Below, in pieces: positions 3,034 to 26,637 of a stretch of DNA of 32,000 bases; position 1 is the first letter of the stretch; each line of letters begins with the position of its first letter. Below the pieces are notes generated by a model. That model saw only the letters and a list, made by a program, of their open reading frames with translations, was not told the origin of the DNA and made no database searches. The stretch is from NCBI RefSeq assembly GCF_000025505.1, contig NC_013849.1, positions 480,001 to 512,000 on the forward strand, written 5' to 3'. Source of the DNA: Ferroglobus placidus DSM 10642 (lineage in GTDB: Archaea; Halobacteriota; Archaeoglobi; Archaeoglobales; Archaeoglobaceae). The position numbers were made by a program, and so were the translations under genes.

Positions 3034-3048
3034 AATTTGGTATTTGGT

Positions 3049-3060
3049 GTATATAACTTT
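3049..3060 (-). promoter_or_regulatory. BRE/TATA box AAAGTTATATAC of the pilin-LTD gene
   Basis: The minus strand reads AAAGTTATATAC, 15 nt upstream of ATG 3033. The identical 12-mer occurs upstream of the pilus ATPase gene at 17351-17362. Confidence 0.55.
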
Positions 3061-3202
3061 GTAGGTCTGAACGGTGGATGTGTATACTTTACAGCGAGAT
3101 TCTTGAAACTCTGAAGGATCTGAGAAAAAACCTCGTTTTGAACAGGCAATGAAGAGGAGAGGGCAGGAGTGCATGTAGCACCCTTGGATTTGTTCGTGAT
3201 TC

Positions 3203-3241
3203 TGTTTTTTCCTTATCCTGTGTTTTTTCCTTCTTATCCTG
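3203..3241. repeat. Tandem 18/21-bp direct repeat in a divergent promoter region
   Basis: tgttttttccttatcctg (3203-3220) is followed immediately by tgttttttccttcttatcctg (3221-3241). The units are identical except for a 3-nt ttc insertion. Confidence 0.85.
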
Positions 3242-3269
3242 TGAAAAGCGGAAAGGAGGGTGGTTGAGT

Positions 3270-3797: not shown

Positions 3798-4426
3798 AAG
3801 GAGTCCTGTACTTCGACGGAGCCTGTCTTCCCGTGAACCCGGGAGGAATCGCAACCTATGGCTTTGTGATCATCACACCATCCGGCGAAATTGTGAAGGA
3901 GAAGGGGATTGCTGCAGAGAAGGGGACGAACAACATTGCGGAGTACACCGCTCTAATAAGGGGGTTGGAAAAGGCCCTGGAGCTGGGCATTGACGAGCTC
4001 ATCGTCAGGGGGGACTCGCAGCTCGCAATCTACCAGATGAACGGTGTGTACGCTGTTAAATCACCAAACATAATTCCTCTATGGCAGAGGGCAATGGAGC
4101 TGGCAGGAAAGTTCAGGAAAATACGCTTCGAGTGGGTTCCGAGGGAGCAGAACAGTGCTGCTGATGAACTCTCAACTCAGGCCTACATCGAGCATGCGGA
4201 GCGGAAAAGCAGGGAGAGGAGTGAGGAGATAGAGAACTGGGAGATAAAGCATGTCTCCGGGCCGGTGTACCGTGTCAGAAGGTATGATGTTAATGTGGAG
4301 GAGAAAACGTGCACCTGTCCGCACTACTACAATGTCAACAGGTTCAAGCTGCTCAAAAAAGCGGGGATAAAAATAAGATGTAAGCACATATTTGCTGCAG
4401 AGAGGTATAGACAGAACAGAACATAA
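3794..4426 (+). CDS. RNase HI-type ribonuclease H fused to a C-terminal SWIM zinc finger
   Basis: The RNase H DEDD motif order is present: YFDGAC..NPGG, NNIAEYTALIRGLE, IVRGDSQL, EQNSAADELS. The C-terminus CTCPHYYNVNRFKLLKKAGIKIRCKH fits the SWIM pattern CxCx(n)CxH. Confidence 0.85.
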   Translation: MKGVLYFDGACLPVNPGGIATYGFVIITPSGEIVKEKGIAAEKGTNNIAEYTALIRGLEKALELGIDELIVRGDSQLAIYQMNGVYAVKSPNIIPLWQRAMELAGKFRKIRFEWVPREQNSAADELSTQAYIEHAERKSRERSEEIENWEIKHVSGPVYRVRRYDVNVEEKTCTCPHYYNVNRFKLLKKAGIKIRCKHIFAAERYRQNRT

Positions 4427-5448: not shown

Positions 5449-6681
5449 GTGGTTTCGTTGGTAGAGGGTACAGCCATCTTCACCCGCAAATGCTGCCGCA
5501 CAATGACGACCAAATTTGGCAGAGTTACGGTTTACATGGCTCACGACGAGCACATGGGGAAGTGTCTGTTCGAGGATGGTTTTGTAACTCCGAACATGCC
5601 AAAACTGCATTATGCGATCGACTTCTCTGTCAGGGATGACACGCTAATCCTGAAAGACTCTCTTTCCCCCAAAGCCAGAGAGTTTCAGGGAGGGGAAGCT
5701 TATGTTTTCGAGAAGAGGGATGGCTTCAACCTCCTCTTCTACATGTACAGGGGAGAGGTGATACCGAAGACCCGCATGAAACCAATGGCGACGGGAAAGA
5801 CTGCACAGGTTGTCACTCTGCCAGGATTCCCCAGAGAGGAGGTGGAGGAACTCGTCAGAGATGGCTATATCCCAATCATGGAGGTCTGGGGGACGAAAAT
5901 TGAAGAGCTGGACATCATGCACGGCCCGGTGAACTACAGGGCTGTTCAGGAGAGAGAAGGGTTACCGGAACTCAATGCCGAGATTATAGCGATCATGCGG
6001 GCTGAAAGTGGAGAGAGAGCCAGCAACAACAGCGGCAACAATAACAGTGGTGGCAGCTTCTCAAAGGATACGCTCACCCTTGCCTCCTCAAACAGCATAT
6101 ACTGCTACGAATTCTTGCCCCCGGATGTGATGATGGAAACAGCAGAATCCTACGGGCTGAAAACAGCCCCACTCCACGATGTTGTAGAGCTGTCTCCTGA
6201 AAACGTGAAGGAGCTCATGAGCTGGGCTGAGAAAGTTAACGAGCGAGAGGTTATTCTGGAAGGATTTGTCGCCCACTGCTCCATCGGTACCGGGTATGGT
6301 ATGTTCAAGATAAAACCCTACAGCATAATGGCAAAAGACGTCATAACTTCGAAAACAATCCCCAGAGAGAGAATAGAGCTCGAAATCTCCAAAATCCTGC
6401 TGGAAACAGATGTGGAAGAGATTGCCAGAAATCCTGGGCTTTACATCGAGCAGCTCAACGATTACCTCGGGGAAGACTTCAAGCTGACAAAAGAGATGAG
6501 GAAAAAAGCCAGGAGAGTGTTTGCAGAGACAATTGCCAGAGAGCTCCTCCGGAAAAATCCAGACCTCACACCTGAGGCAGCTGGGAGGTGCGGGATACAC
6601 GGAATGTTTATCGGCTTTCTGCGGAAGCAGAGGGGGCTGGCTGGGGTGAGAGCAGAGACGGGAGATAAGGGGCTTTTTTGA
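5449..6681 (+). CDS. ATP-dependent RNA/DNA ligase-like nucleotidyltransferase
   Basis: Covalent nucleotidyltransferase motifs occur in the canonical order: I, YVFEKRDGFN (Lys codon 5713-5715); III-like, IPIMEVWG; IV, EGFVAH; V, GMFKIKPY.
A low-complexity insert ASNNSGNNNSGGS lies between motifs III and IV.
The start is uncertain (GTG 5449, TTG 5458 after GAGGTGG, or ATG 5503). Confidence 0.55.
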   Translation: MVSLVEGTAIFTRKCCRTMTTKFGRVTVYMAHDEHMGKCLFEDGFVTPNMPKLHYAIDFSVRDDTLILKDSLSPKAREFQGGEAYVFEKRDGFNLLFYMYRGEVIPKTRMKPMATGKTAQVVTLPGFPREEVEELVRDGYIPIMEVWGTKIEELDIMHGPVNYRAVQEREGLPELNAEIIAIMRAESGERASNNSGNNNSGGSFSKDTLTLASSNSIYCYEFLPPDVMMETAESYGLKTAPLHDVVELSPENVKELMSWAEKVNEREVILEGFVAHCSIGTGYGMFKIKPYSIMAKDVITSKTIPRERIELEISKILLETDVEEIARNPGLYIEQLNDYLGEDFKLTKEMRKKARRVFAETIARELLRKNPDLTPEAAGRCGIHGMFIGFLRKQRGLAGVRAETGDKGLF

Positions 6682-6720
6682 CCTTTTCCTGCCTTTAAGG
6701 GGGGATGGAGAGGTGGTTGA

Positions 6721-7701
6721 ATGAGGGTCCTGAAGAAAACGCAGTTCCCGAAAAGACTGAGAGGGAGAATAGAGAATGAGAAGCAGCTCAGAGAGCTTGT
6801 GTTCTGGACTGTTGAAGTAATACCCAAAGACATCAAGCGAAAGCTTGGCCTCCAGGTTCGGGAGTGGAGGGAGAGGCTTGCGGAGATGCTGTTCAGCAAG
6901 CACAGGGATATGGTGGGCAAGGACTGGGTTCAGGTTGTGAGCGTAATCGAGGACGAGATAATCAGCGGGAGATTCAAAGAGGAACTTGAAAAGAGAAAGT
7001 TACAGGAATATGAGGAGAACAAGCGCTTGCTCGAAAGTGTTGAAAGCCGGATCGGCCGCAGGATCAGCATCAATCCGAATATCCCGGGAAAGGTGTTTAT
7101 CACAGCTCTGACGGAACAGCTAACTCCTCTTGTAGATGTGAAAGTTGAAGCACCTCTCCTCTCCAGAGCACTCTCAAACGACCTTCTGGAAGAGCTGGCA
7201 AGATACTACGCTCAGCACCACATCTGGGTGTTGGTGAGAGAGTTCATCAAAGGCAACAGAGACAGTCTGAGCATAGAGGTTGTTCTGGAAAAACCCTTCA
7301 TGACCTACTGCCCCATCTGCAAAGATTTTGCTGAGGGATCCGAATACCTGTACGAGGAGGCGTTTCCTGACGACTACTTCGCGTACTGGATTGCAAACCT
7401 GGTTAAGCACTACAGACACGAGCACATCCGCTACTACGACCTGAGCTGGAGATACTGGAGCTACGGGGATAAAAATCCGGAGTATCAGAAGCTCGGGCAT
7501 GACGGGTTCAGAATCACGGTGAACAACAGAGCGAAGAGGCAGCTGATAAGGGCGATTCTGAAGGATGAGAACCTGTCGGCATACGGCAAGAGAGAGCTGA
7601 TCCTGGCAGTGCTGAGGTTGCAGCATAATGACGAGAAAACGGTGGAGCTCGTCAAAAAGGCTCTTCAGAAGATCGAGCAAGCTGATGAGGAAAAGTTCTG
7701 A
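6721..7701 (+). CDS. Hypothetical protein (326 aa) with CxxC...HxxxHxH zinc-finger-like motif
   Basis: ATG 6721 follows GGAGAGGTGGTTGA. It contains YCPICKDF...KHYRHEH. No family recognised. Antisense ORFs 6088..6903, 6462..6920 and 7174..7773 are treated as shadows. Confidence 0.6.
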   Translation: MRVLKKTQFPKRLRGRIENEKQLRELVFWTVEVIPKDIKRKLGLQVREWRERLAEMLFSKHRDMVGKDWVQVVSVIEDEIISGRFKEELEKRKLQEYEENKRLLESVESRIGRRISINPNIPGKVFITALTEQLTPLVDVKVEAPLLSRALSNDLLEELARYYAQHHIWVLVREFIKGNRDSLSIEVVLEKPFMTYCPICKDFAEGSEYLYEEAFPDDYFAYWIANLVKHYRHEHIRYYDLSWRYWSYGDKNPEYQKLGHDGFRITVNNRAKRQLIRAILKDENLSAYGKRELILAVLRLQHNDEKTVELVKKALQKIEQADEEKF

Positions 7702-7752
7702 CCGTGAGAAGGATTGCCGCTTTTTCCACTTTTCTGAAGAAGAAGAGGTGGT

Positions 7753-8460
7753 ATGGTGAAGTGGAAAACCCATAAACTGATAACCAGAGCGGTTTGTGAG
7801 GCTTTAAGCATTCCGAACAGCGAGGAGGTTGTTGAATCTTCCGTTTTTCCAGATCAGCACAACGAGTTTTTCGTATCAAATGGGAAGCGTGTCAGAATTA
7901 AGCACCACAGCCCCTTCGCTTTAAAAGCGGCATGGAGGCACATTTTGAAGGCGAGAAAACTCCTGCTTCAGGGAAAGGACTGCTCTGAAGATCTGGGCAT
8001 GGCCCTTCATTACATTCAGGACTATTCTGTGAGCGTGACAAGGAGGTTTCTCTTCTTCAGGTGGAGGAGCGAGAAAGTTCACGATGAGAGGGAGGAGGAG
8101 CTGGCAGAGCTGCCTGTCCCGAGGGATGCGATCGAGGAGGGGATGAAAATAAGAGATCCCAACCAGCTAAAAAAGGCGCTTTTTTCCGAGAAACCGGAGG
8201 AGGAGCTGGAAAGGATAATGTACACAGCAACAACGCTGAGCGCTGCAGCGGTGGCCACAATTTTCTATCCTGTAGGAGATGGGAGTGGATGGAGAAGGGC
8301 TGTTGCACTGCACATCGCAGCGGTTGCATCACCTCTCCTGCTGGCTCTGATAGGTGGATGGCTGTGGCTACCGCTGGCAACTGTGCTGGGATATGCTGTG
8401 CATAAACTGGACTTCAAATACCACAGAGCGAAGCTGGAGAGAGACTGGTTCCGTCCCTGA
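7753..8460 (+). CDS. Membrane-anchored protein with zinc-dependent phospholipase C / P1-nuclease-like motifs
   Basis: The N-terminus MVKWKTHKLITRAV, then FPDQH, HHSP and LGMALHYIQDYSV follow the W..H / PD / H / HY.QD pattern of that superfamily, as I recall it. The C-terminus has 2-3 hydrophobic helices (AAAVATIFYPV.., VALHIAAVASPLLLALIGGWLWLPLATVLGYAV). Confidence 0.4.
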   Translation: MVKWKTHKLITRAVCEALSIPNSEEVVESSVFPDQHNEFFVSNGKRVRIKHHSPFALKAAWRHILKARKLLLQGKDCSEDLGMALHYIQDYSVSVTRRFLFFRWRSEKVHDEREEELAELPVPRDAIEEGMKIRDPNQLKKALFSEKPEEELERIMYTATTLSAAAVATIFYPVGDGSGWRRAVALHIAAVASPLLLALIGGWLWLPLATVLGYAVHKLDFKYHRAKLERDWFRP

Positions 8461-8490
8461 AGTTTTTTAATCTGGACAGGAGGAGAGAGT

Positions 8491-8976
8491 TTGGCTGTGC
8501 TGGTTTACCAGATTAGTGGTGATCTGCCAGAACCACCCAAAAGCTACATCGAGTCGTTTATGTCTCTTGTCCTCTCCTACCGCAGAAAAACTCCTCCTGA
8601 TGAGCTGACAAGGGAGCTCGCATACAGGATGCTCAGGCAGAGGATGGCTCTTCTGAAGGTTGTTGAGCGTGAAAACATCTACGTGGTGACTTTGCAGAGA
8701 AAAAGTGTGGTCGTGTTCGAAATCTACCCGCCAGAGCATAATCTCCTGCCAGAGCATGATAAAACAGATGAGGGAGAGGAGGCAGAGGAGGGAGCATGGA
8801 TAAAGAGGGAAGAGATGGGGAAAGAAGGTAGTAATGGAAGCGGAAATTCAAAAAGCCCAGTGAACGGAAAATTCAACGGCTGGAGATACAGAACAATCAG
8901 AAATCTGCAAGATGTGCCTGTTGAGGTGCTGAAAGAGGTGGTTGAGGAGCTGAGCAGATTGATCGAGCCAGAATGA
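8491..8976 (+). CDS. Hypothetical protein (161 aa)
   Basis: TTG start after GGAGGAGAGAG. It is the last gene of the + strand block. It has an acidic, Gly/Ser-rich middle. No family recognised. Confidence 0.45.
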   Translation: MAVLVYQISGDLPEPPKSYIESFMSLVLSYRRKTPPDELTRELAYRMLRQRMALLKVVERENIYVVTLQRKSVVVFEIYPPEHNLLPEHDKTDEGEEAEEGAWIKREEMGKEGSNGSGNSKSPVNGKFNGWRYRTIRNLQDVPVEVLKEVVEELSRLIEPE

Positions 8977-9090
8977 TTTGACGGTTTTTAACAGCGGTTT
9001 ATAACAACACCACCATTTTTATTTTTTTCTCTAAAAATATTTCAAATTTTTATAAATATTATGTGAAAGTTTTTTGTAAACAAAAAGAAA
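8977..9090. terminator. Convergent intergenic region with oligo-T tracts on both strands
   Basis: The + strand has ccatttttatttttttctc. The - strand has ttctttttgtttacaaaaaacttt. The stretch is AT-rich and lies between convergent gene blocks. Archaeal terminators are oligo-T runs. Confidence 0.45.
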
Positions 9091-10923
9091 TCAGATGTAC
9101 TCCTCTTCCTCCACCACAAGCAACCTCTTCAGAACGTAGTAGAGTATTGCAAGCGGCGCCACTGCGGCCGCAACTATTACGAATTCGTAGATGGGCAGCA
9201 TGAAGGGCTGTATCTTTCCAACATAAAAGCTGCCGTGGAGGGAATCCATGAACACATCCTCGCTGGCGTTGTACCAGTCATCTGGGATGGTTGATGGTAT
9301 GAAGTAGTTAACTGTACCGCTCTCGTTCACGGTAAACTCAAGATAGCCGTCTGTTGCGTTGATTGTGAAGGTTTTTGCCCTGAAGCTGATGTAAACGGGG
9401 CCCGTGTATGTTGAGGTATTGTTGTTGTAGGTGATGAACATTTTTACCGTGTATTCCGTCTCTCCTGGCTTGTGGCCTGGCTTAGCTTCCACCGTAACAT
9501 TAACACTGGGTTTGACCAGCTTTTTAACATGCTGGACAGTCCTAACGGGGTTGCCGAAGATGTCGAGGGGGATGATGCTGAGATTGCCGGGGCTGAGATT
9601 GCCACCACCACCAAGGCTGAGATTGCCGAGGCTGGTGCTACCACTGACACCTCCACTACCGCCAGCCCTCACACACATCATCTCAACATCGAATGGCTTA
9701 ATCTCGCTCTTGAAGTTCGGCACGCTAACTGTTGCATTCCTCACCTCCTCCTTCTCAATCCAGGCTGAGATGGGGAGGATGCTGAATGAGGGTATGGATG
9801 CGATGAAGTATGCGGGCTCGTCCAGGCTTACGTGATCTGATCCAGCATATCCGCTTTTACCTGCCGTTCTGTGGATGTAGGCGTCCGTTATAACCCTGTA
9901 GGTTGTGTAGTATCTGAGCCCTTTAACGGCGGGAGTGAGGGTGGAGGAGGGAGAGGGAGTGCTGCTTCCTGAACTGCCGGAACCAGAACTGGGAGCCCAG
10001 GCGAGGCTGGCAACACCATCGTTGAGGAATATGCACTGCTCAACCGGCTTCTCCCTGAGAAGAGTGTAGATCTGGACGGGCTCGGAGTTTACGATTCTCA
10101 GACTGTCTTCCACCGTGAGCGTGTACGTGTGGTATCTGTATTTGGTGATGTAGTATGTGTGGCAGTGTGTGTGGCAGTGCCCTTCGTCGTCGCAGGATGT
10201 GGAGCAGCTGGTGTGCTTTTCAATTATCTTCTCCTTAACCACAACCTTTATTGTGGCAGTAGCCCTTACACTGTCACTGCCCTCAACCTCAATATCAACC
10301 ACATCCCTATCTCCACCACCCCTCTTCGTGTTCTTGCCGGTAATTGCGACCTCTGCTGAGTGGCTTTCGAGGTAGTAATAGTGTTTTGGATAGCTGCCCG
10401 TTTTATCCGACGGTAGCTGAACCCTGTAATCCAGAAGGTATCCTACTGTCACACTTTTGTTCGCAGCAAATCCACTGTCAACCTCAACAAGCCCCTTAAC
10501 CGGTATTAGCTTTATGTATGCGTGTTTTATCACCCCACTGCTCCGTGTGCTCACTCCGGAGGGGACTGCACTTGCCCATTCATCCGTGTGGGGGAAAGAC
10601 TGGATGAACCTCCTGTTCTGCTCCTCCACCACAGAGGGAATGTACGGGAACACGAAGTCATAGTATTCAGCAGGATCTGAGGTGTTTGTCATATTGCCAC
10701 TTCTGTCCACATCATCTGACTGGTAAGTTCTCGGGAGGTCTGCGGTTGCAGGATGGATGAGGAGGGGCAGCATCAGCATAAGTGTCAGCAGAGTCATCAG
10801 TAATACAGGGGGGCTGAGTATGCGGGACATGCTTCGCAGGCCTCCAAGCACTTCCTGCTCCTCCAGTACACTCCTGTCCAGGCCACGACGTCCCGGCATA
10901 CTACGATCCCGATTCCGGTTCAC
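9091..10923 (-). CDS. Large secreted, C-terminally membrane-anchored protein with a Cys/His cluster
   Basis: There is a Sec-type signal (MSRILSPPVLLMTLLTLMLMLPLLIHPATA/DL). The likely start is ATG 10830, 8 nt after GGAGGC; GTG 10923 is the alternative.
It also has Ser/Gly linkers, the cluster HTSCSTSCDDEGHCHTHCHTYY, and a C-terminal TM helix (FVIVAAAVAPLAILYYVL) followed by an acidic tail.
It is the last gene of the pilus-like operon. Confidence 0.65.
   Translation of the reverse strand: MNRNRDRSMPGRRGLDRSVLEEQEVLGGLRSMSRILSPPVLLMTLLTLMLMLPLLIHPATADLPRTYQSDDVDRSGNMTNTSDPAEYYDFVFPYIPSVVEEQNRRFIQSFPHTDEWASAVPSGVSTRSSGVIKHAYIKLIPVKGLVEVDSGFAANKSVTVGYLLDYRVQLPSDKTGSYPKHYYYLESHSAEVAITGKNTKRGGGDRDVVDIEVEGSDSVRATATIKVVVKEKIIEKHTSCSTSCDDEGHCHTHCHTYYITKYRYHTYTLTVEDSLRIVNSEPVQIYTLLREKPVEQCIFLNDGVASLAWAPSSGSGSSGSSTPSPSSTLTPAVKGLRYYTTYRVITDAYIHRTAGKSGYAGSDHVSLDEPAYFIASIPSFSILPISAWIEKEEVRNATVSVPNFKSEIKPFDVEMMCVRAGGSGGVSGSTSLGNLSLGGGGNLSPGNLSIIPLDIFGNPVRTVQHVKKLVKPSVNVTVEAKPGHKPGETEYTVKMFITYNNNTSTYTGPVYISFRAKTFTINATDGYLEFTVNESGTVNYFIPSTIPDDWYNASEDVFMDSLHGSFYVGKIQPFMLPIYEFVIVAAAVAPLAILYYVLKRLLVVEEEEYI
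10156..10179 (-). repeat. Perfect in-frame 12-bp tandem duplication (encodes HCHT HCHT)
   Basis: On the + strand, tgtgtggcagtg occurs at 10156-10167 and again at 10168-10179. Confidence 0.9.
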
Positions 10924-11003
10924 AATATGCGCCCCGGAACTCTCCTCCCCACACCCTCACCAAACACCCTCACTCCCTCACATCACTCCCTCACCAACCC
11001 TCT

Positions 11004-12911
11004 TCAGAGCAGGTTCATGAACAGAATCCCGGTGATAAGCGTGACTGATAGCATGACAGCAAGCGGAGATGCAATGCGCCTCAGATCACCTCTTGTTGCT
11101 GCAACACCAACTGCCGCGGACATGCTGACTATGTAGCTTGCATGTCTCAGAACCGTTCTCACCTGGTTTATCACAAATGGGCTGATCGAAAATCCAAGGC
11201 TCCTTCCAGATCCTGCTGCAGCTGTTGTAGCCTGCCCGAGCTTCTCGAACTGGCCGAGCAGCATTGCTGAGATTGCAACTGCAATGCCCAGGAAGAGCAG
11301 AGCCGCCAGAACCATCATGCCGCCGTAGGTTTTTGCAACCGAATCCCTCTCCTTCCTGAAAGCATTTAGCCTCATCAGCTCTCCAACAAGGCTTATGAGG
11401 ACCTGCGTAACCCTCCCGCTCACATCAACGGTCTTTGAAAGTATCCTCGCTGCAAGCCTTAAGTCGGTGCTTGGAGTGATTCTGAAAAGCCACTGGAAGG
11501 CCCTGTCCCTCGATATGCCCCTGTCAAGCATCTCGGCAAAAACCTTAACATATTTGCTCAAAGGTGGCCTTGCCTCCTCAGCTGCAAGCTTGAAGGCTGT
11601 TGTCGTGTCCTTCCCAGCCTCAGCGAGGGAGAGGACTCTGTTGAAGTAGAGGGGGAGCTGCGCTGACAGCTTCTCATCCTCCTTAATCCACTTCCTGAGC
11701 ATTACTGCTGATACTGCTGAACCAATTACAGTGAGAGCAAGAGTCCAGAACTCCAGGTTTCCGGGGATGTGGTGGAGGTGGCTTAAGACTCCGAGCAGCA
11801 CTCCGATCAAAGCAGCAGCAGGAATTACTGCGAGCCGCTTTATCCCCGGCCTCTCCACCCCTTTCTCAGGAGATAGACCGTACAGGGCAATGATCAGGGC
11901 AAGGGATGAGAGTGGCATGAATCCATAGACGAGCCCGTAAACCATCGAGATGTCTGCCTGCCCGGCTATGCTCTTGGCGAGCTGTATCGACACAACCATT
12001 GTCGGGATTGCGAGGCTGACGGTGAGGTAAACCTCTGCAATCATCTCAAGCTTCTTCAGATACTCTGTGTACATGATCTTCCTCTCAACCTCCAGGCTTT
12101 CAATCCTCTCCTCCATGTACCTCCCCAGATCACCGCCGGCCTCCATAACACCCACAATACCTCTCAGCAGATCTGCAAGCTTCGCTGACGGAGTTGTTGC
12201 AGCAACCTCAAGCATTGCTGCCTTCAGCGTTGTATTTCCATATCTTACAGCATAATATATTCTTGCGAACTCCTTGGATATCTCACCTAGATCCATTGTA
12301 ACGAGCTCTTTAACGGCCTCCATAATAGAAATGCCTGCCTTTGCAAATCCGAGGAGGGTTATGTAGAGGGTGTGGAGGTTGAAGTCTATGTCCTCTCGCC
12401 TTGATGAGATTTTCCCCTTCAGAGATGCGACGAAGAGGATGGTGAAGATAAAGGGCTGGGAGGTGTAGGCTGTAATTGCATAGATGTAGGGCCTTGTCCA
12501 GTCAGGAATGGGGATCGAGATTGGCAGGGAGAGTATAATGTGACTGCGGAACAGGGTTCCGAGCAGAAATCCGATAACTGCAAGAGTGAGTGCAATGGTG
12601 GAGGAGGCTATGCTTATATTTCTCAGATACTTTTCAGGGAAGAGGATTCCCGCCTTCTTGAAATCATCCCTGTACTCCTCAAGAAGCTGAGGAGGGTACA
12701 TTCCCGGGATGAACAGCCTGAGGGAATCCTTTATCCCTCCCTCCTCCTCCACTCCCTCTATCTTTGCCCCAGCCCTCCGTCTCCTGTGTATTAAAGCCAC
12801 AGCGATTACCGCAACCACCACAACAACTGCGGCAGCGATCACAGCAGTGGAATGCGGGAGCGTATTGAGTCGCAGATTGGACAGCAGATTAGATATGATG
12901 CTCACGTTCAT
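11004..12911 (-). CDS. FlaJ/TadC/PilC-family (T2SS-F) polytopic platform protein
   Basis: 635 aa with many TM helices and two T2SS-F-like cytoplasmic repeats: GISIMEAVKELV..EFARIYYAVRYGNTTLKAAMLEVAATTPSAKLADLLRGIVGVMEAGGDLGRYMEE, and LSLAEAGKDTTTAFKLAAEEARPPLSKYVKVFAEMLDRGISRDRAFQWL. ATG 12911 follows GAGGGGTGATATC. Confidence 0.85.
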   Translation of the reverse strand: MNVSIISNLLSNLRLNTLPHSTAVIAAAVVVVVAVIAVALIHRRRRAGAKIEGVEEEGGIKDSLRLFIPGMYPPQLLEEYRDDFKKAGILFPEKYLRNISIASSTIALTLAVIGFLLGTLFRSHIILSLPISIPIPDWTRPYIYAITAYTSQPFIFTILFVASLKGKISSRREDIDFNLHTLYITLLGFAKAGISIMEAVKELVTMDLGEISKEFARIYYAVRYGNTTLKAAMLEVAATTPSAKLADLLRGIVGVMEAGGDLGRYMEERIESLEVERKIMYTEYLKKLEMIAEVYLTVSLAIPTMVVSIQLAKSIAGQADISMVYGLVYGFMPLSSLALIIALYGLSPEKGVERPGIKRLAVIPAAALIGVLLGVLSHLHHIPGNLEFWTLALTVIGSAVSAVMLRKWIKEDEKLSAQLPLYFNRVLSLAEAGKDTTTAFKLAAEEARPPLSKYVKVFAEMLDRGISRDRAFQWLFRITPSTDLRLAARILSKTVDVSGRVTQVLISLVGELMRLNAFRKERDSVAKTYGGMMVLAALLFLGIAVAISAMLLGQFEKLGQATTAAAGSGRSLGFSISPFVINQVRTVLRHASYIVSMSAAVGVAATRGDLRRIASPLAVMLSVTLITGILFMNLL

Positions 12912-12967
12912 GATATCACCCCTCTTTCCACATTTTCAGCCTCTCTTTTCCCATCCATGATCTCGCC

Positions 12968-12987
12968 CCATCCAGCGCCATCCAGCG
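12968..12987. repeat. Perfect 10-bp tandem duplication upstream of the platform gene
   Basis: ccatccagcg occurs twice in tandem, 57-76 nt upstream of ATG 12911. Confidence 0.9.
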
Positions 12988-13041
12988 CGTTCTGTCCCTG
13001 CCTGTTCCAGCCACTATTGCACATTCTCAACATCACCCAAA

Positions 13042-14250
13042 TCACCCCTCAATCACAAACGCCACCTCATACGTTGATCCGTCAGGCCGGGTAATGGATG
13101 CAACAACTGTATCCACACCGCCTGCACTCTTCGCAACCACTGAAGCTACTCCAAAATCGTTCGAGTTAACCTTAATAGATGTCCCCGTGTTTTTGCCGTC
13201 AGTAAGTGTTGTGGATGAGTTGAGGCTCGTGAAAGTAACTGTTACACCGGGAACGGGGTTGTTGAAAGTGTCTCTCACTTCAGCAGCGAGGGTTGCCGGA
13301 GTTGTTACAGCCCTTGCTGTGAGCCTGTAGAGGTAGTGATGCTCTGCCCTCTCATCCTCAAATCCCGCAGCCCCCAGTATAAGTTTGTAGGTTACACCTC
13401 TCATGAGCTCTATCACCACGTAGTCTCCCTGCATACTTACAGAGGACACGTAGCTCGAATCTGTGCTGTCAAAGTACTGCTTCCAGAAGTCCAGGGGGAG
13501 GGAGGTTTTTAGGAGGATCGTGATTGGTCTTCCACCTCCAGCATCAGTAACGGCAATCCCCTCCCCGTTACCACCGCTGTAGCAGTAGAGTGTTCCGCTT
13601 ACAGCAACACCGCTCTCGGAGAGGTTGCCCTCAAACATGGGGATGTAAACAGTCCTGCCATCAACAATATTTGTCCCACCAACATAGCTGTACTCCGTCT
13701 TCCCAACAGCAACAGCCCCATACTCCACCCTCGTCTCTCCAGGATCAAAGTAAACGTATGAAGGGATGAAGAGGAGGGACTTGCCGGTCAGAACGATCTC
13801 CCTCCCATTCCACACATCCTGTAAATCAGGATCCACAGCTACTGCATTGCGTATCCTTATCTCAGCTGAATATGTTGAGATTGCACCGGAGAAGGTGTTG
13901 GGTGTTGAGAAGAGGGGGATTGTGGGGTAGCTGCCTCCAAGCGTTAGGGAGTACGATCCGGTTTTGCCCTGAAGAGTAATCCTTTCAACATCACCTGTGA
14001 GGGCGATGAGATCCTTAACAGTCTCTGCAAACTGCCTTGTTTCATAGCTTGAGCAGATCTGCGGAACACCATATACCTGGTAGTAGGTGTACATGGCGGA
14101 GAGGAGCATAAGGACTAAGGCAAAGCCAACGAGTGGAGAAAGGGCTCTGCTGTCTGACAGCAGGTGGGGGTGGGAGTGAGGGGGAGTAGGACTTAGGGTA
14201 GATGTGGGTGTTGTAGTCAGGCTCGCCACCACAGCCACCACACTCACCAC
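13042..14250 (-). CDS. Archaeal prepilin-like secreted protein with C-terminal bacterial Ig-like (Big) domain
   Basis: SDSRALSPLVGFALVLMLLSAMY matches the archaeal pilin N-terminal consensus RAVSPVIG plus a hydrophobic helix. The C-terminus TLAAEVRDTFNNPVPGVTVTFTSLN..GVASVVAKSAGGVDTVVASI fits a Big_1-type fold pattern. GTG 14250 overlaps the ATPase stop by 7 nt. Confidence 0.7.
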   Translation of the reverse strand: MVSVVAVVASLTTTPTSTLSPTPPHSHPHLLSDSRALSPLVGFALVLMLLSAMYTYYQVYGVPQICSSYETRQFAETVKDLIALTGDVERITLQGKTGSYSLTLGGSYPTIPLFSTPNTFSGAISTYSAEIRIRNAVAVDPDLQDVWNGREIVLTGKSLLFIPSYVYFDPGETRVEYGAVAVGKTEYSYVGGTNIVDGRTVYIPMFEGNLSESGVAVSGTLYCYSGGNGEGIAVTDAGGGRPITILLKTSLPLDFWKQYFDSTDSSYVSSVSMQGDYVVIELMRGVTYKLILGAAGFEDERAEHHYLYRLTARAVTTPATLAAEVRDTFNNPVPGVTVTFTSLNSSTTLTDGKNTGTSIKVNSNDFGVASVVAKSAGGVDTVVASITRPDGSTYEVAFVIEG

Positions 14251-17200
14251 CTCTCCTCACCCAGCCCCTCCTGCCTCTCCTGCTCCTCTGACTCCTCCTG
14301 CCCTACCGATGGTACATCCTGCCCTTCTGATTCTGCCCTGTCCTCTGACAGATTATCTCCTTTTCCTCCCTCCCTCTTCCTTCCCTCGATCACACCCTCC
14401 TTCTTCATGTCTCTTATTTTTGTCTTTACAGCGCTGTAGCTCCTGTTGAGCGATTCTGCAATCTCCCGCAGAGGTTTCCCCTGTGTGTAAAGCTCGATCA
14501 GCTCCTGGATTTCCTCATCAGTCCATTTCCTTACACCACTTCCAGCTTCGCTCCTTTCGCTCTCTCCTTCTCTTCTCTCTCCCGCCTCTACTGCCTCTTC
14601 TGTCTCTGTAACCTCTACTGCCTCTTCCGTCTCGGCATCTACTGATCCTGCTCTTCCTGCTTCCTCTACCCCTCCCGTCTCTGCCTCTCCCTCACTTCCT
14701 GTTCCTGCAGCCTCATCCTCTACCCCACCTGCTCCTCCTACTCTATCTACTGCTTCCTGCTGAACAGCACTCACAACACCCTCTTCTTCCTCCATCAATT
14801 CTGACTCCACAGCTCGTAAAATCTCCATCCATTCCTCCTCCTTCTTTTTCTCTTCCTCTCTCTCTTCCTCCCTCATCCTGACTTCACCAATCTCTTCTCT
14901 CCCTACCTCCTCTGATACCTCCACGCCCTCCACTTTCCCTACTTCCTCCACCTTCTCTGACCCCTCTACCTCTTCCTCTTCCTCTGCCTCCCTTACCTCC
15001 TCTGCCTCACCTACATCCAATGTTTCTGCCACTCCTGCCGCTGTTCTCTCCACCTCTTTTACATCTCCCATCTCTCCCCCCTCCCCTACCACACCCTCAT
15101 CCACCTCCCTGCATGCTACTGCCTCGCTCTCGCCCTCCGCTACCCCTACCTCTCTCACCCATGCTGTATCCTCCTCTTTCACCTCTACCTCTCCCTCCGT
15201 CTCCGCCTCTGTCCCTACCTCCTCTGTCCCTACCTCCGACCCAATCTCTGCTTTCCCTACCACTACCTCTGTCCCTACCTCCCCTATCTCTGCTCCCTCA
15301 CCTACCTCTGCTGCCTCTACTCCCTCACCTACCACCTCACCTACCTCTACCCCCGTCCCTACCTCCTCTGTCCCTACCTCTGCTCCAACATCTGCTACCT
15401 CCACTTCCTCGCCTACCTCTGCCTCAGTTACTCTCGCTCCCTCTACCTCTGTCCCTACCACTTCTCCTTCCCGCACTTCCCCTTCTTTACCCTCCCATAC
15501 TTCTCCCTCCCCTGCCTCTTCCTGTCCCTCCTCTCTGTCTCCTTCCGCACCTACCATGCCCTCCAGGCCCTCCAGGTCATCCACACTCAGGCCCTGCAAA
15601 CTCTCCTCACTCCCCACACCCTCTGCAATTTCTGCACTTTCTGCACCAGCAAGCCCCTCTGCACCAGCAAGCTCTGCAGCCTCCACACTGAGCTCAGTTA
15701 TAGATTCAGCAGGCTCGGCAGATTCAGAAGTTGATTCAACTCCTGCCACACCCACAGATTCAGCTACACGCCCTAAATGGATCCTCTCAAAGAACCTTCT
15801 GTAATCTGCCCCCTCCTCCGCAAGCCTCCTGATCAGCCTTGTTCTCCTCTCCAGATCCTTCACAAGCTCCTCCCGTGATCTGCCCGTCCTCTCCGAGATG
15901 CGGTGAAGGATCCCTGAGAGATCGAGTTTCCTGTGCAAATCCCTCGGCCCGTCCCACCGGAAGAGAGGGGTGAGTTTTATGCCCTCCCCTGCCCTCACTC
16001 CCGCTATCTCTCCACCCTCTCCAGCTCCTTCCTCCTCTCCAACCAGCCATATTCCGCTGCACCTTCTGAACACCCTGTCCCCCCTCCTGAAGCTCCCTAC
16101 CACCACAACCAGATCTAAATTCAGAATCATAGCTCTCGGAACAGAGTAGGGAGGGCTCATCAGCCTGTTAATCACAGCCTCAGCACTGCTGCCGTGGACT
16201 GTGGAAAGGCACGTGTGGCCGAGGGCCATTGCCTGGAACATGATTTCAACCTCCTTCCCTCTCACCTCTCCAACTATGATGTACTCAGGCCTCTGTCTCA
16301 GAGCTGCCTTCAGCAGGGCGAACATGTCTATTCTGTCAGTTGCAACCGAGGGGATCCAGTTCTTGTGTGGCAGCAGAACTTCCCTTGTATCCTCTATGGA
16401 CACAACCTTGGAGTGGTATGGTATGAAGAGTGCTGTCGCGTTCATTGCAGTCGTTTTTCCTGCTGCTGTACCTCCAACAAACAGCATCGATCCATTCGAC
16501 TCAAGGCAGAGCCAGAGTAGGGCGAGCTCTTCAGCCGAAAAGGAGTTCCACCTCACAAGATCCACGGGGGTGACAGGAGTTTTCTTCACCTTCCTCACGG
16601 TGAATGTTGATCCGTGATCTGTAACCTCGCTCCTGAATGTCAGCTGAACTCTACTGCCATCATACAGGGTTGTGTCAGCAATTGGGTTTGCCATGCTGAT
16701 CTCAATACCCCTCCGCTGTGCAACAGCCAGAACGAAGTCGTCAAGCTCCTCATTGCTCATCACAATGTTTGTGGGGATGCTCTCGTACAGGCTGTGGTAA
16801 ACAAAGACGGGTTTGTTGTATCCGCTGCAGGATATGTCCTCAATAAACCGGTCCTTGAGGAGGGGGGTTATGCGGCCCGCATAGATACAGTCCCTCTCAA
16901 GGTAGTACCACATCTTTGCGATGGTTTCCAGTTCCAGCTTAAGCTCCTGTTCCGGCTCATGTTCACGTTTGCGTTTGTGTTCACGTTTAGTGGGTAATTC
17001 TGTGAGTATGACTTCCTTGAACGCCTCGAATAAAGTTTCCCTGTCGTCCTCCGAGGCGTGCAGGGGGACCCTTTCAAGCACCCTCTCCTTCAGATCCTGG
17101 AGGAACTCAACCTCCTTATTTGTGAGGTCGGGTTCAAGCAGGGCGTAGAAGTATCCCTTGCCATCTGTAAGGATTTGCGCTGCTGCAAAGGGCATCTCCA

Positions 17201-17330
17201 GCCAGTAGTGCTCAACCTCCCTGTATCCCTCCGGTATATCGGCGGACAGCTTTACATTTACACCTCTCAGATCCTCCATTGTAAAGTCAGGTACCTCTTT
17301 CTTTCGGCGGAAGGGAAGTGGAAATTTCAT
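14244..17330 (-). CDS. FlaI/PilB/VirB11-family secretion ATPase fused to an acidic low-complexity region and a C-terminal Myb/GcrA-like HTH
   Basis: aa 1-520 carry the family motifs: YALLEPDLTNKE (FlaI-type N-domain), Walker A GGTAAGKTT (aa 286-294), SIEDTREV (Asp box), EYIIVGEVRG (Walker B) and HTCLSTVHG (His box).
aa 523-932 are E/G/V/A-rich low complexity.
aa 934-980 read RKWTDEEIQELIELYTQGKPLREIAESLNRSYSAVKTKIRDMKKEG.
The ATG 17330 start appears leaderless, 20 nt downstream of AAAGTTATATAC. Confidence 0.9.
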   Translation of the reverse strand: MKFPLPFRRKKEVPDFTMEDLRGVNVKLSADIPEGYREVEHYWLEMPFAAAQILTDGKGYFYALLEPDLTNKEVEFLQDLKERVLERVPLHASEDDRETLFEAFKEVILTELPTKREHKRKREHEPEQELKLELETIAKMWYYLERDCIYAGRITPLLKDRFIEDISCSGYNKPVFVYHSLYESIPTNIVMSNEELDDFVLAVAQRRGIEISMANPIADTTLYDGSRVQLTFRSEVTDHGSTFTVRKVKKTPVTPVDLVRWNSFSAEELALLWLCLESNGSMLFVGGTAAGKTTAMNATALFIPYHSKVVSIEDTREVLLPHKNWIPSVATDRIDMFALLKAALRQRPEYIIVGEVRGKEVEIMFQAMALGHTCLSTVHGSSAEAVINRLMSPPYSVPRAMILNLDLVVVVGSFRRGDRVFRRCSGIWLVGEEEGAGEGGEIAGVRAGEGIKLTPLFRWDGPRDLHRKLDLSGILHRISERTGRSREELVKDLERRTRLIRRLAEEGADYRRFFERIHLGRVAESVGVAGVESTSESAEPAESITELSVEAAELAGAEGLAGAESAEIAEGVGSEESLQGLSVDDLEGLEGMVGAEGDREEGQEEAGEGEVWEGKEGEVREGEVVGTEVEGARVTEAEVGEEVEVADVGAEVGTEEVGTGVEVGEVVGEGVEAAEVGEGAEIGEVGTEVVVGKAEIGSEVGTEEVGTEAETEGEVEVKEEDTAWVREVGVAEGESEAVACREVDEGVVGEGGEMGDVKEVERTAAGVAETLDVGEAEEVREAEEEEEVEGSEKVEEVGKVEGVEVSEEVGREEIGEVRMREEEREEEKKKEEEWMEILRAVESELMEEEEGVVSAVQQEAVDRVGGAGGVEDEAAGTGSEGEAETGGVEEAGRAGSVDAETEEAVEVTETEEAVEAGERREGESERSEAGSGVRKWTDEEIQELIELYTQGKPLREIAESLNRSYSAVKTKIRDMKKEGVIEGRKREGGKGDNLSEDRAESEGQDVPSVGQEESEEQERQEGLGEERW
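14427..14531 (-). repeat. HTH-module copy 1 (one arm of a 105-nt inverted duplication)
   Basis: The reverse complement matches 17825-17929 at 89 of 105 nt in a codon-by-codon count. A perfect 32-nt core lies at 14440-14471. Confidence 0.85.
14535..15764 (-). repeat. Imperfect tandem/low-complexity coding repeats (acidic E/G/V/A region)
   Basis: The + strand is roughly 80 percent pyrimidine over about 1.2 kb by eye, with recurring cctctgtccctacctcc units (EVGTE-type peptide repeats on the - strand). It produces the spurious P/L-rich antisense ORF 15020..15691. Confidence 0.8.
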
Positions 17331-17431
17331 ACTACTACATTGTGCTAATAGTATATAACTTTATCACTCACAAGTATTATATGCTTCCATGACAAGTTAA
17401 GGTGAGGTAGGGGTTAAGGTAGGGTGATAAA
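17331..17431. promoter_or_regulatory. Divergent promoter region between the ATPase operon and the regulator gene
   Basis: Two TATA-like boxes: gtatataacttt (17351-17362, read on the - strand as AAAGTTATATAC) and agtattatatgc (about 17382-17393, + strand). GGGTGAT SD precedes ATG 17432. Confidence 0.55.
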
Positions 17432-18034
17432 ATGGGTAAGACTGATGTGAGCGAGCAGGCCAAGGTAGACGTTGAGTTTGGCTGTTTTCAAGACTTCCAG
17501 GACTACAGGTGTGGGGGTAGGGATTGCAGGGATTGTACTTTCCGGGAAGATTGTGTAGAGCTGAAGGTTAGAGAGATCACGAGAATAATTCTTCAGACTG
17601 AGGAAAGGGTACCGAGCGGCGTTCTCGCCACAATCTTCAACGTACCAGAACAGCTTGTCAAAAAAATAAGGAGCTATGTTGAGCGGGAGATTGTCAGAAA
17701 GAAGATACTGGGAGAAAAGGCAAAACAGTGGCAGACCGCCCAGGCAGAGCATAGACAGGCTACCAAGCAAGAAGAGGAGACAAAGCGGAGAAAAAACCCC
17801 AGGGCAAAAACAAAGGCAAAGGTGAGGAGGTGGACATACGAGGAGACCCAGAAGCTGATTGAGCTTTACACGCAGGGAAAACCACTGCGGGAGATTGCAG
17901 AATCGCTCAACAGGAGTTACAGAGCAGTGGAAAAAAGGCTGTACAAACTGAGAGAGGAAGGGGTAGTGGGGGTTAGAGTGGGGGGTGGTGGGAAAGAGGG
18001 AGGAGGTGTGGGTGGGGGTGTGGGAGGTGCATGA
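17432..18034 (+). CDS. Putative transcription regulator: Cys-rich N-terminus plus Myb/GcrA-like HTH plus Gly-rich tail
   Basis: The N-terminus is CFQDFQDYRCGGRDCRDCTFREDC. The C-terminal module RRWTYEETQKLIELYTQGKPLREIAESLNRSYRAVEKRLYKLREEG is nearly identical to the ATPase C-terminus. The tail is GGGGKEGGGVGGGVGGA. Confidence 0.6.
   Translation: MGKTDVSEQAKVDVEFGCFQDFQDYRCGGRDCRDCTFREDCVELKVREITRIILQTEERVPSGVLATIFNVPEQLVKKIRSYVEREIVRKKILGEKAKQWQTAQAEHRQATKQEEETKRRKNPRAKTKAKVRRWTYEETQKLIELYTQGKPLREIAESLNRSYRAVEKRLYKLREEGVVGVRVGGGGKEGGGVGGGVGGA
17825..17929 (+). repeat. HTH-module copy 2 (other arm of the inverted duplication)
   Basis: See 14427-14531. The perfect 32-nt core ctgcgggagattgcagaatcgctcaacaggag lies at 17885-17916. 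Confidence 0.85.
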
Positions 18035-18096
18035 TGCAAAAAGTGGTGCTGAAGGAAAAGAAGGAGGGAGAGAGGAAGAGGAGGAGGTGAGGTAAG

Positions 18097-24930: not shown

Positions 24931-25923
24931 CTAAACAACCACAAACTCTCCCTTTCCAAAGCTTGTTTTAGCCCCTATACCCCTAAGCTCGGCGATGGCA
25001 AGGCATTCGTAGAAAATCTCCGGCGGTTTTTCTGCAAACTCAACCTGCACCTTTGCCCCGGCAGGAATTGCCATGTCCTTCATAATCCTGTTCTTTCCCC
25101 CGTTTGGTGTCACCTTTCTGTGGAGCGACAAAACCGTTCTGGGGGGCAGGCATTCCTTCTTAACCCCCACAAATGGATCCTCATAGCTTTCATAATCCGG
25201 GTGGAAGTGCCTTCCGGCATTCTTCACCCCCGTGAGGATAGTCTCTCCCGTAAGCTCCCCGATGAAGTCGGAGATGAAGTGAAGGGTTAGCCTGTCCTTT
25301 CTTTCCAGCTCTCTTTCCAGCTCTCTTGCCCTCCTCCTGATATCCTCCAGCCTTATCATCCTGTAGTTCAGCCTGTCAATCCTGAAGTGCCCCTTCCCCT
25401 TTCCGCTCCTCCTCCCCAGCTTCAGCCCGTTCTCCTCTATCAGCTCCATTACTGCAACAAATTCCTCAGCATAATCCTCCCCCCTCCTCATATTAAGTAC
25501 AGCCTTAAACCTGTAGCTGTATCCGCGCGTAACCGCTTCAAGTCTGAAGGCCGACGTTTTTCCGGTCTTTCTGTCAACCCTCGTCTGGATGATTGTGCCT
25601 TTTCTGGTAGGATGCTTTAAAACCTGGCCGCATGTGCTGCACTTAAAGTTCTGAAACTTCTCAGCCACAAAGGGTAGAAGGAGTCCTCCGTCAGCATGAA
25701 GGGGAATTGCATCCTTGAAGTAGATTAGCGCTGCATTCTCGTCCAAAAAGCTCTTGCTCAATCCAGCATTAACATGCAGGAGTTCATACCCAACACTCCC
25801 CCTTATGTGCTGTCCCTGCGGATAGGGGTGGGTGGTGGAAAGTCCGTGTTTCTTGAAACCAGTTCCAAGGTGGTACTCGGTGATGTTGGTGATCACACCC
25901 TCAGCCACAAGAGCCACCTTCAT
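24931..25923 (-). CDS. Two-domain RAMP protein, Cas5 group-like (Csm4/Cmr3/Csf3-like) with a Zn-knuckle insert
   Basis: 330 aa. Motifs: N-terminal ITEYHLGTG..YPQGQHIRGSVGYELL, FKDAIPL, the insert FKCSTCGQ, VDRKTGKTSAFRLEAVTRGYSYRF, a first G-rich loop LGRRSGKGKGHFRI, and a second, terminal G-rich loop GIGAKTSFGKGEFVVV. ATG 25923 follows GAGGAGAGAGGT. Confidence 0.65.
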   Translation of the reverse strand: MKVALVAEGVITNITEYHLGTGFKKHGLSTTHPYPQGQHIRGSVGYELLHVNAGLSKSFLDENAALIYFKDAIPLHADGGLLLPFVAEKFQNFKCSTCGQVLKHPTRKGTIIQTRVDRKTGKTSAFRLEAVTRGYSYRFKAVLNMRRGEDYAEEFVAVMELIEENGLKLGRRSGKGKGHFRIDRLNYRMIRLEDIRRRARELERELERKDRLTLHFISDFIGELTGETILTGVKNAGRHFHPDYESYEDPFVGVKKECLPPRTVLSLHRKVTPNGGKNRIMKDMAIPAGAKVQVEFAEKPPEIFYECLAIAELRGIGAKTSFGKGEFVVV

Positions 25924-25988
25924 ACCTCTCTCCTCACGTTGCCCTCGCCTTTACCTCGCCTGCTTTTTTACTTCCCTGCTACAGCCTG

Positions 25989-26600
25989 CTACAGCTTTTC
26001 AAGGATGTTTCTGGCCTGCTTGAGGAAGTCCGTCCACTCCCTCTCCTGAATACTGAAATCTACCTTCACCCTTCCTCTTCCTCTCGTAACCCATCCCCCA
26101 ATTCCGAACTCCTCTATTGCCTTCAATCCAGCAACAATTAATTCCTTATCCCTCGGCTTCGGATCCACAACCCTTATTTTCCCCGTGAACACCGCTCCCT
26201 CCTCGATCTCCTCAATTTTGAGGGTGTTCGACACCACCCCATCCTCCCTGCTGATTCTGAGGTGCACTGATGGATGGACAATCTCCTTGTAAGATCTCTC
26301 AGAGACAAGGTCATCAATAATTGCTCTCCCCTTCTTCCCCAGAGATCCAAAGAGATCGCAGAGAACACATCTCCCGCATGGCTTTGCATCCTTCATCCCG
26401 GTATCACATACATTCTCGCCGTTCTCCCTCAGAATTCTCTCCAGATACCCCCTCAAAGCACCGTATATGGGGATTGCAACTCTCCCGTCCCCTGTTATTC
26501 TTGCAAGCTTTATATCTGCCTTCCTGTCCATTTTAATTTCTCCTGTCACTGCTGGCAAGGTTGTTGTGGCCTTTATATCGAACACCAGATACTTATTCAC
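25989..26600 (-). CDS. RAMP protein, Cas7 group-like (Csm3/Cmr4/Csf2-like)
   Basis: ORF-track 25989..26621, trimmed to GTG 26600, 3 nt after GGGGGTGAT. Signature order: YLVFDIKATTTLPAVTG, IPIYGALRGYLE (compare IPGSSxKGxxR), CGRCVLCDLFGS (compare CxxCxLFG), TLKIEEIEEGAVFTGKIRV, and GIGGWVTRGRGRVKV (G-rich loop). Confidence 0.75.
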   Translation of the reverse strand: MNKYLVFDIKATTTLPAVTGEIKMDRKADIKLARITGDGRVAIPIYGALRGYLERILRENGENVCDTGMKDAKPCGRCVLCDLFGSLGKKGRAIIDDLVSERSYKEIVHPSVHLRISREDGVVSNTLKIEEIEEGAVFTGKIRVVDPKPRDKELIVAGLKAIEEFGIGGWVTRGRGRVKVDFSIQEREWTDFLKQARNILEKL

Positions 26601-26637
26601 ACCATCACCCCCTACTCTCAAAAATACTCCTCACCAT

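Follow-up and report, generated by a model that had tools for sequence, protein, structure and literature searches.

In the 32,000-nucleotide window of the Ferroglobus placidus DSM 10642 genome considered here (contig NC_013849.1, positions 480,001 to 512,000), the minus strand from 14244 to 17330 is one unbroken open reading frame (ORF) of 1028 residues plus stop, in which a pilus/secretion ATPase core is followed by an acidic disordered segment, a charged helix, a second acidic segment, a single helix-turn-helix (HTH) module and an acidic tail. The HTH has its closest counterpart in a divergently encoded neighbour of 200 residues, here called p200, and the differences between the two copies are mostly synonymous over their shared tract, so the fused copy appears to have been kept as a protein. 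The ORF is real, and the fusion is genuine and specific to Ferroglobus. We tentatively take the extension to be a regulatory tether that links the pilus motor to transcription, a reading to which we give a little less than an even chance. The features on which the argument depends are the following (aa, amino acid position; pLDDT, predicted local distance difference test score; dN/dS, ratio of non-synonymous to synonymous substitution rates).

14244..17330, minus strand: the whole ORF, a pilus/secretion ATPase with a C-terminal extension (single open frame; exact protein in NCBI/UniRef).
15771..17330, minus strand: ATPase core, aa 1-520, with afGspE-like N- and C-terminal domains (Pfam T2SSE, PDB 2OAP, motifs).
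16449-16475, minus strand: Walker A, GGTAAGKTT, aa 286-294 (aligns with the 2OAP motif).
16377-16406, minus strand: Asp box, VVSIEDTREV, aa 309-318 (aligns with the 2OAP motif).
16257-16289, minus strand: Walker B, PEYIIVGEVRG, aa 348-358 (aligns with the 2OAP motif).
16191-16220, minus strand: His box, GHTCLSTVHG, aa 371-380 (aligns with the 2OAP motif).
15975..16043, minus strand: E/G-rich insertion in the core, aa 430-452, VGEEEGAGEGGEIAGVRAGEGIK (falls where 2OAP has a gap when aligned; no counterpart in the related loci L001-L003 and L048).
14898..15770, minus strand: first polyanionic low-complexity segment, aa 521-811, with degenerate in-frame repeats (composition, repeats, GNN codons, charge-hydropathy, pLDDT <50).
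14736..14897, minus strand: predicted long charged helix, aa 812-865, rich in E, K and R (single-sequence AlphaFold, model residues 312-365, pLDDT up to 86).
14535..14735, minus strand: second polyanionic low-complexity segment, aa 866-932 (composition, AlphaFold model).
14376..14534, minus strand: predicted tri-helical Myb/homeodomain-like HTH, aa 933-985 (sub-threshold Pfam matches, 2LVS, AlphaFold, paralogy, dN/dS).
14247..14375, minus strand: acidic C-terminal tail, aa 986-1028 (composition; tail kept in the second strain, L098).
17331..17431, no strand: divergent intergenic region of 101 bp, in which an imperfect direct repeat and a pair of TATA-like A/T boxes are seen; candidate operator.
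17432..18034, plus strand: p200, the divergent 200-residue gene, with a Cys cluster, a helix, a basic linker, an HTH at aa 133-176 and a G-rich tail (Pfam, paralogy).

The extension frame contains no stop in 508 codons, against 52 and 22 in the other two sense frames, and none of 2000 mononucleotide shuffles of the extension remained open (0/2000); the ORF is thus open by more than chance. The earlier note on this DNA had given the coordinates as 14244-15764, which lie inside the real ORF and cover just its 3' half; the overall architecture that it proposed (core, polyanionic low-complexity region, HTH, acidic tail) is borne out by the ORF, the Pfam and PDB matches, composition and AlphaFold. 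Its TGA stop (14244-14246) and the start of the following gene, a GTG at 14250, overlap in the manner of coupled operons. The 1028-residue protein, p200, the TadC-type platform protein of the operon and a DsbA-like neighbour have exact entries in NCBI/UniRef, all on one contig, and the genome (F. placidus AEDII12DO, CP001899) is finished, with 245x Illumina and 47x 454 coverage and a G+C content of 44.1% (PMC3236036). The protein is therefore already in public databases; a description of its architecture was not found in literature searches that were not exhaustive, among them one for PilB-type ATPases fused to an HTH, which gave nothing relevant, and an ATPase-HTH fusion is not mentioned in the census of archaeal pilus loci (PMC4858521). 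On the opposite strand, an ORF of 223 residues (15020..15691, plus strand, P/L/S-rich) mirrors the purine-rich coding DNA, is free of stops for that reason, and is almost certainly no gene.

The first 520 residues, described in the earlier note as a complete FlaI/PilB/VirB11-type ATPase with four motifs, are just that: the Pfam model T2SSE (PF00437) matches aa 209-391 with 105.1 bits (cut-off 24.9, E=4.3e-30), the best solved relative is A. fulgidus GspE (PDB 2OAP, query residues 21-518, E=1e-95) with FlaI second (PDB 4II7, E=1.6e-60), and all four motifs are in place. This score, the motifs and a T2SSF/TadC/FlaJ platform gene in the operon together assign the protein to the secretion-ATPase superfamily, and within it the core is a non-archaellar euryarchaeal type IV-pilus-like assembly ATPase of the afGspE type. 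An assignment as the archaellum motor FlaI/ArlI was rejected: the NCBIfam model NF058587, though the best-scoring named one, reaches 350.5 bits against an equivalog cut-off of 550. Genes for archaellin, FlaH or FlaF/G are absent from the scanned window ORFs, and the archaellum locus of F. placidus, Ferp_1456-1463, lies away from this window (PMC4600277). The C-terminal subdomain (aa 395-545), when submitted to a homologous-protein search, gave no matches at E<=1e-5. The E/G-rich insertion of about 20 residues at aa 430-452 has no counterpart in 2OAP or in relatives of 57-67% identity; since it sits within the conserved core, low-complexity expansion is tolerated inside an essential domain.

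The segment that follows (aa 521-930) consists of 31% E, 16% V, 16% G and 11% A and carries a net charge of -110; this composition and charge, and the degenerate repeats described below, agree with the earlier claim of an E/G/V/A-rich repeat stretch of about 410 residues. It lies far on the disordered side of the charge-hydropathy plot (mean net charge 0.268 vs a boundary of 0.066), and a single-sequence AlphaFold model of aa 501-1028 has pLDDT <50 for aa 512-808, with helices in the HTH. The spacer is thus predicted to be mostly disordered, broken by one long charged helix. The tail that closes the protein is also acidic, as had been noted, with a net charge of -11 over aa 991-1027. F. placidus grows at 85 degrees C, and some 400 residues with a net charge of about -110 and predicted disorder are unusual in a hyperthermophile.

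At the DNA level, codon position 1 is G in 77% of extension codons (GNN), and E, V, G and A are among the five dominant residues, all of them exactly GNN-encoded. Tandem Repeats Finder detects only degenerate arrays (63-93% matches), whose periods (9, 12, 15, 18, 27 and 84 nt) are all divisible by 3 except in two short low-scoring arrays of 10 and 11. The in-frame periods and the internal 84-nt duplication fit a spacer that grew by in-frame slippage and duplication, as we infer. The coding strand is 77-84% purine; the 1.2-kb polypurine/polypyrimidine tract of the earlier note is in fact purine-rich GNN-codon DNA, in which the longest unbroken purine run measures 43 nt (14832-14874), and a triplex-forming tract of 1.2 kb is thereby ruled out.

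The C-terminal module is, according to the structural models and profiles, most probably a tri-helical Myb/homeodomain-like HTH of the DNA-binding type. A profile built from both HTH copies of the window finds Cbp2 (PDB 2LVS) at E=1.7e-8, with both 2LVS repeats aligning; weaker matches are the HTH of an archaeal Lrp/AsnC protein (6.6e-5) and a Myb-like domain from human (0.004). AlphaFold models aa 925-1000 as a three-helix bundle with pLDDT of about 90 (helices at model residues 14-25, 30-37 and 41-54), and the top Foldseek matches to this model are all HTH DNA-binding domains (NarL, Lrp, DeoR, Cbp2, Myb, Pax). In Pfam, aa 935-987 match HTH_38, Sigma70_r4_2, HTH_58, GcrA and Myb, each below its own cut-off. 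Where the module had been called Myb/SANT or GcrA-type, the fold class stands, given 2LVS and AlphaFold, and membership in GcrA does not: PF07750 scores 15.4 bits against a cut-off of 26.9 and aligns over positions 2-42, the N-terminal HTH, of a 155-position model. The HTH similarity expected of the C-terminal module is found in the 2LVS match and in the three-helix bundle. The 53-residue HTH as a query in the homologous-protein search produced no candidate.

The p200 copy of the HTH passes two Pfam models, HTH_23 (26.2 vs 24.6) and Sigma70_r4_2 (25.9 vs 25.7), and aligns with the ATPase tail at 59% identity over 59 residues (E=2e-22), the similarity being restricted to the HTH. A former independent gene upstream of the fused HTH is ruled out by this restriction. 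In the DNA, the two copies form an inverted repeat of 107 nt with 85-86% identity, 3.3 kb apart (p200 side at 17822-17928). Over codons 9-44 they differ at 12 synonymous and 5 non-synonymous sites (dN/dS about 0.08), and over the 22 codons of helices 1-2 (20-41) at 5 and 0; past codon 44, divergence in helix 3 is saturated, with exchanges that are mostly conservative (K/R, I/L, M/L, I/V). The synonymous excess of 12 vs 5 argues that the fused HTH has been kept as a protein and is under purifying selection. The pattern along the module would be expected if the duplication is older and gene conversion later acted on its 5' part, or if the recognition helix has diverged. p200 is presumed to be a regulator and the donor or sister of the fused HTH.

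Outside the HTH, p200 has five cysteines clustered near its N-terminus (C18, C27, C32, C35, C41), then a helix, VLATIFNVPEQLVKKI, and a K/R-rich linker. A HMMER scan of 1.84 billion representative proteins with p200 as the query yields 748 relatives, mostly with 2-14 tandem modules of the same HTH; there is no secretion ATPase among the 150 best HTH relatives, and a tblastn search of p200 against phage genomes gave no match. The closest relative, P0006, has 47% identity, shares the upstream helix and passes the Pfam Myb model (35.1 vs 24.4); its contig of 3.8 kb consists of small genes, all unannotated and on the same strand, and comes from run ERR15087786, which is also the source of the second Ferroglobus-like strain. 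Directly upstream of the p200 start codon, the intergenic region holds an imperfect direct repeat, GTTAAGGT..GGTAGGG, at 17396..17425 (GTTAAGGTGAGGTAGGG / GTTAAGGTAGGGTG), possibly an operator or else just part of the ribosome-binding region.

The extension was surveyed in 95 related loci, of up to 67% identity, gathered by scanning genomes and metagenomes with the core as the query. None of them (0/95) has an ATPase extended likewise, which agrees with the earlier view that the extension is unusual for the family, and tblastn of the HTH and of p200 against these loci, with flanks of up to 5-6 kb, gave no real match. In complete relatives the ATPase stops within about 10-40 residues of the core end; a few ATPases of Aenigmarchaeota and Altiarchaeota have about 80-100 extra residues. 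The ATPase gene of L048, the closest relative, runs directly up to the gene that follows it, so that the roughly 1.5 kb seen here is an insertion at the junction between the two genes. The same junction in L001 (62% identity) contains a different purine-rich low-complexity stretch, SGGSGGDSRNRNSDRDRNRNRNRDRWRWRRDG, at 7486..7690 of that locus, translated there as an addition to the N-terminus of the Ig-like protein; this is an independent expansion, and the junction is thus prone to them.

Two independent assemblies bear on the locus itself. One, L097 (from SRR019238), is 99.95% identical to 16037..17914 and breaks inside the p200 HTH repeat. The other, L098 (run ERR15087786), represents a second strain with 93-97% nucleotide identity to 14463..9088; it starts inside the ATPase HTH, reads IAELLNRSYSAVKTKIRDMKKEGVIEGRKRKGGEGDNLSEDRAESEGQDVPSVGQEESEEQERQEGLGEERW-stop, has the same overlap between this stop and the start of the Ig-like gene, and continues through that gene and the remaining operon genes. 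Over the 72 codons of the HTH end and tail, it differs from the window at 4 synonymous and 3 non-synonymous sites. Where indels separate the strains in low-complexity tracts, each amounts to repeat units of 9, 6 or 3 nt. Units of 9 nt differ at 14233 in the Ig-like gene and at 9610 in the 610-residue gene (TGTGGTGGC; TGGTGGTGG), and the N-terminal low-complexity tract of the TadC-type protein differs in length, giving 649 vs 635 residues.

The interpretation in the earlier note is supported in part: the architecture stands, and coupling to DNA handling, autoregulation and DNA mimicry are conjectural roles. If the extension is a regulatory tether, each subunit of the membrane-associated hexamer would bear a flexible arm ending in an HTH, so that the base of the pilus could carry as many as six modules of a DNA-binding or regulator-like kind. 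The negative charge of tether and tail might, by analogy to other acidic regions, make them electrostatic competitors of DNA for the small and basic HTH, and so provide autoinhibition or a tuning of specificity. The likeliest target would be the promoter region that the ATPase gene shares with p200, or the other sites of p200, and how much of the pilus motor is present, or in what state, could in this way feed back on transcription of the pilus locus. A more elaborate version has the motor doubling as a tethered transcription factor, its HTH being shielded from DNA by a DNA-mimicking polyanionic linker of 400 residues and freed or repositioned by hexamer assembly or nucleotide state at the membrane, and p200 competing or cooperating with it, so that the state of the machine would directly govern transcription of the locus; this we consider doubtful.

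A number of observations count against the regulatory tether. Helix 3, the presumed recognition helix, is strongly diverged from that of p200, so a common DNA target is not implied. The fused HTH falls short of the Pfam thresholds (its best match, HTH_38, scores 24.4 vs 27, and Myb 14.5 vs 24.4), and its Foldseek E-values are weak (0.07-0.3). The extension is dispensable for the machine, being absent from the 95 loci, including relatives of 62-67% identity. Short E/G-rich low-complexity tracts occur in other window genes too, so the spacer may be a mutational by-product. The conservation in L098 is no proof of selection, since the strain is too close. Finally, 14464-16036 lies outside both independent assemblies.

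The strongest rival holds that the extension is a neutral passenger, brought about when the stop was lost, part of the neighbour's HTH was copied in and purine-rich GNN repeats underwent runaway in-frame expansion, and tolerated without function since a floppy tail at the C-terminus leaves the hexamer undisturbed. Its distribution in a single lineage, the different purine-rich expansion at the L001 junction, the E/G-rich tracts in other genes and inside the ATPase core, and the repeat-unit indels between strains are all as such a history would leave them. The HTH is harder to accommodate: its synonymous excess, 12 vs 5 in codons 9-44 and 5 vs 0 in helices 1-2, argues that it is translated and selected, and the substitutions in helix 3 are mostly conservative; 508 codons have moreover passed without disruption of the frame. 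We regard this explanation as unlikely, though it deserves to be taken seriously.

Purifying selection on the HTH needs no physical fusion, and another rival has the gene yield two products, a small acidic HTH regulator and a near-normal ATPase core, made separately by an internal start (for example Met-819 or Met-836, each after GGAGG-like sequence) or by proteolysis of the linker. Long disordered linkers are protease-sensitive; Shine-Dalgarno-like GGAGG motifs are abundant, and the ATG of codon 836 follows GGAGGAGG in the purine run 14832-14874. Against this stand the continuous frame, the stop that overlaps the next start as in a single cistron, and the limitation of the p200 similarity to the HTH, with no trace of an earlier gene start. 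The scan for internal promoters and terminators found none outside low-complexity DNA, but it was of a bacterial type and thus uninformative for archaea. Two products are rather improbable, and less likely than a passenger.

Some type IV pilus systems mediate DNA uptake, and a pilus-like motor ATPase joined to a DNA-binding-type domain is itself an architecture that suggests DNA handling, with six tethered HTHs holding chromosomal or incoming DNA at the pilus base for uptake, transfer or nucleoid anchoring. Yet the operon (ATPase, Ig-like protein, TadC and one unknown gene) lacks DNA-translocation components, and a single small HTH of the sequence-specific type, flanked by a repelling polyanion, is ill-suited to non-specific capture. 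The nearest paralogue of the HTH is the regulator-like divergent neighbour, and for this reason a regulatory link is preferred over DNA handling, which is very unlikely. Least probable of all, to the point of being scarcely credible, is an artefact in which mis-assembly or sequencing error falsely joined the ATPase gene to a downstream HTH gene: low-complexity purine-rich DNA is hard to sequence, and both short-read assemblies break at the borders of the tract and leave its interior without a second witness, but the genome is finished from two platforms at high coverage, the frame and a strict GNN periodicity run through the whole tract, the second strain shows the same junction of HTH end and tail with the following gene, and breaks at the HTH repeat and the purine run are what true repeats would give.

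Among known systems, afGspE (PDB 2OAP/2OAQ) is the nearest to the core, aligning over query residues 21-518 with residues 13-494 of its chain, sharing the motifs, the order Archaeoglobales and an operon with a TadC platform. It has 511 residues, however, and ends about 15 residues past the point at which the window protein runs on for 500 more, with neither acidic region nor HTH. FlaI/ArlI (PDB 4II7) has the superfamily and fold in common with the core (at the E-value given above), whereas the window protein scores below the equivalog cut-off and has no archaellin or FlaH genes beside it in the window. For the HTH, the best match among solved structures is 2LVS, the Cbp2 of Hyperthermus butylicus, a homeodomain-like, Myb/Pax-related protein that binds CRISPR repeats (PMC3597662). 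Cbp1 and Cbp2 are likewise archaeal, tri-helical and Myb/Pax-like, but they are small stand-alone proteins with 2-3 tandem HTHs and a basic linker; membership in their family is rejected here, where a single HTH with acidic flanks is fused to an enzyme, inside an ATPase protein.

For the acidic flanks, the closest analogy is found in D/E-rich disordered regions that autoinhibit DNA-binding domains (PMC10250230). Eukaryotic proteins with D/E-rich tails, such as HMGB1, also place a polyanionic disordered region beside a small basic DNA-binding domain (PMC10250230); their tails have tens of residues rather than the roughly 400 seen here, and they are nuclear proteins without a motor ATPase. Two proteins, P0048 and P0096, have the same type of HTH, W-x-x-[ED]-E-D...L...G...IA..LGR...AV..R, joined to an enzyme through D/E-rich linkers, but differ in their enzymes (HAD and phosphoribosyltransferase) and in having several HTH copies, with four modules. 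Archaeal type IV pilus loci commonly have genes for transcription regulators as neighbours; according to surveys, many unrelated ones adjoin these loci, few mechanisms are described, and pilus regulation is largely unknown (PMC4858521). The membrane-held HTH regulators ArnR and ArnR1, in or near type IV pilus-like loci (PMC4858521), offer an analogy for a membrane-proximal HTH, but have their own transmembrane anchor, another HTH family and no fusion to an ATPase.

A motor ATPase physically linked to a DNA-binding module copied from the gene next to it would make a link from motor to transcription directly testable, in a cultured organism with a finished genome. Were the version with a tethered transcription factor to prove true, it would constitute a feedback device from motor to gene in one polypeptide, and a rare functional long disordered region at 85 degrees C; the spacer would be a natural test case for DNA-mimicking or autoinhibitory acidic linkers outside eukaryotes. 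Even as a tolerated accident, the protein would illustrate how in-frame GNN expansion and local domain duplication build new multidomain proteins, and how large a C-terminal appendage a secretion ATPase can bear as a hexamer.

The remaining genes of the operon follow the ATPase on the same strand.

13042..14250, minus strand: second operon gene, membrane-anchored, with an Ig-like (Big_1) domain (syntenic in L001-L003, L034, L048-L051 and L098).
11004..12911, minus strand: third operon gene, a TadC/FlaJ-type polytopic membrane platform, T2SSF (Pfam T2SSF E=2.3e-17, synteny).
9091..10923, minus strand: fourth operon gene, 610 residues, without a family match here (conserved partner; the L098 orthologue has DUF8186).

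This four-gene order (ATPase, Ig-like protein, TadC, a protein of about 600 residues) is conserved, and the platform is syntenic in at least 8 related loci; its NCBIfam matches to ArlJ and UpsF are below cut-off. The region of the operon, from about 9000 to 20000, has a G+C content of 0.49-0.58 against the 44.1% reported for the genome, and in L098 the sequence beyond the last operon gene (after window position 9088) bears no relation to the window; possibly the operon lies in a variable or acquired region. An ORF with an archaeal type IV pilin N-terminus and a lamin-tail domain (2257..3318, minus strand) shows weak similarity to reading frames found upstream of the ATPase gene in L002, L003 and L048. 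No Pfam or NCBIfam match was obtained for four consecutive ORFs at 5449..8976 (plus strand; 410, 326, 235 and 161 residues) or for an 843-residue protein with a G/S/P-rich tract at 27636..30167 (minus strand). Two RAMP-superfamily CRISPR-associated genes, one with a weak Cas6-like C-terminus, lie at 24931..26621 (minus strand). A link to CRISPR, suggested by these genes and by the likeness to Cbp2, was considered and rejected: the window has no array, and its sole Rfam match is a tRNA. At 3794..4426 (plus strand), an RNase H-like (RVT_3) domain is combined with a weak SWIM zinc finger.

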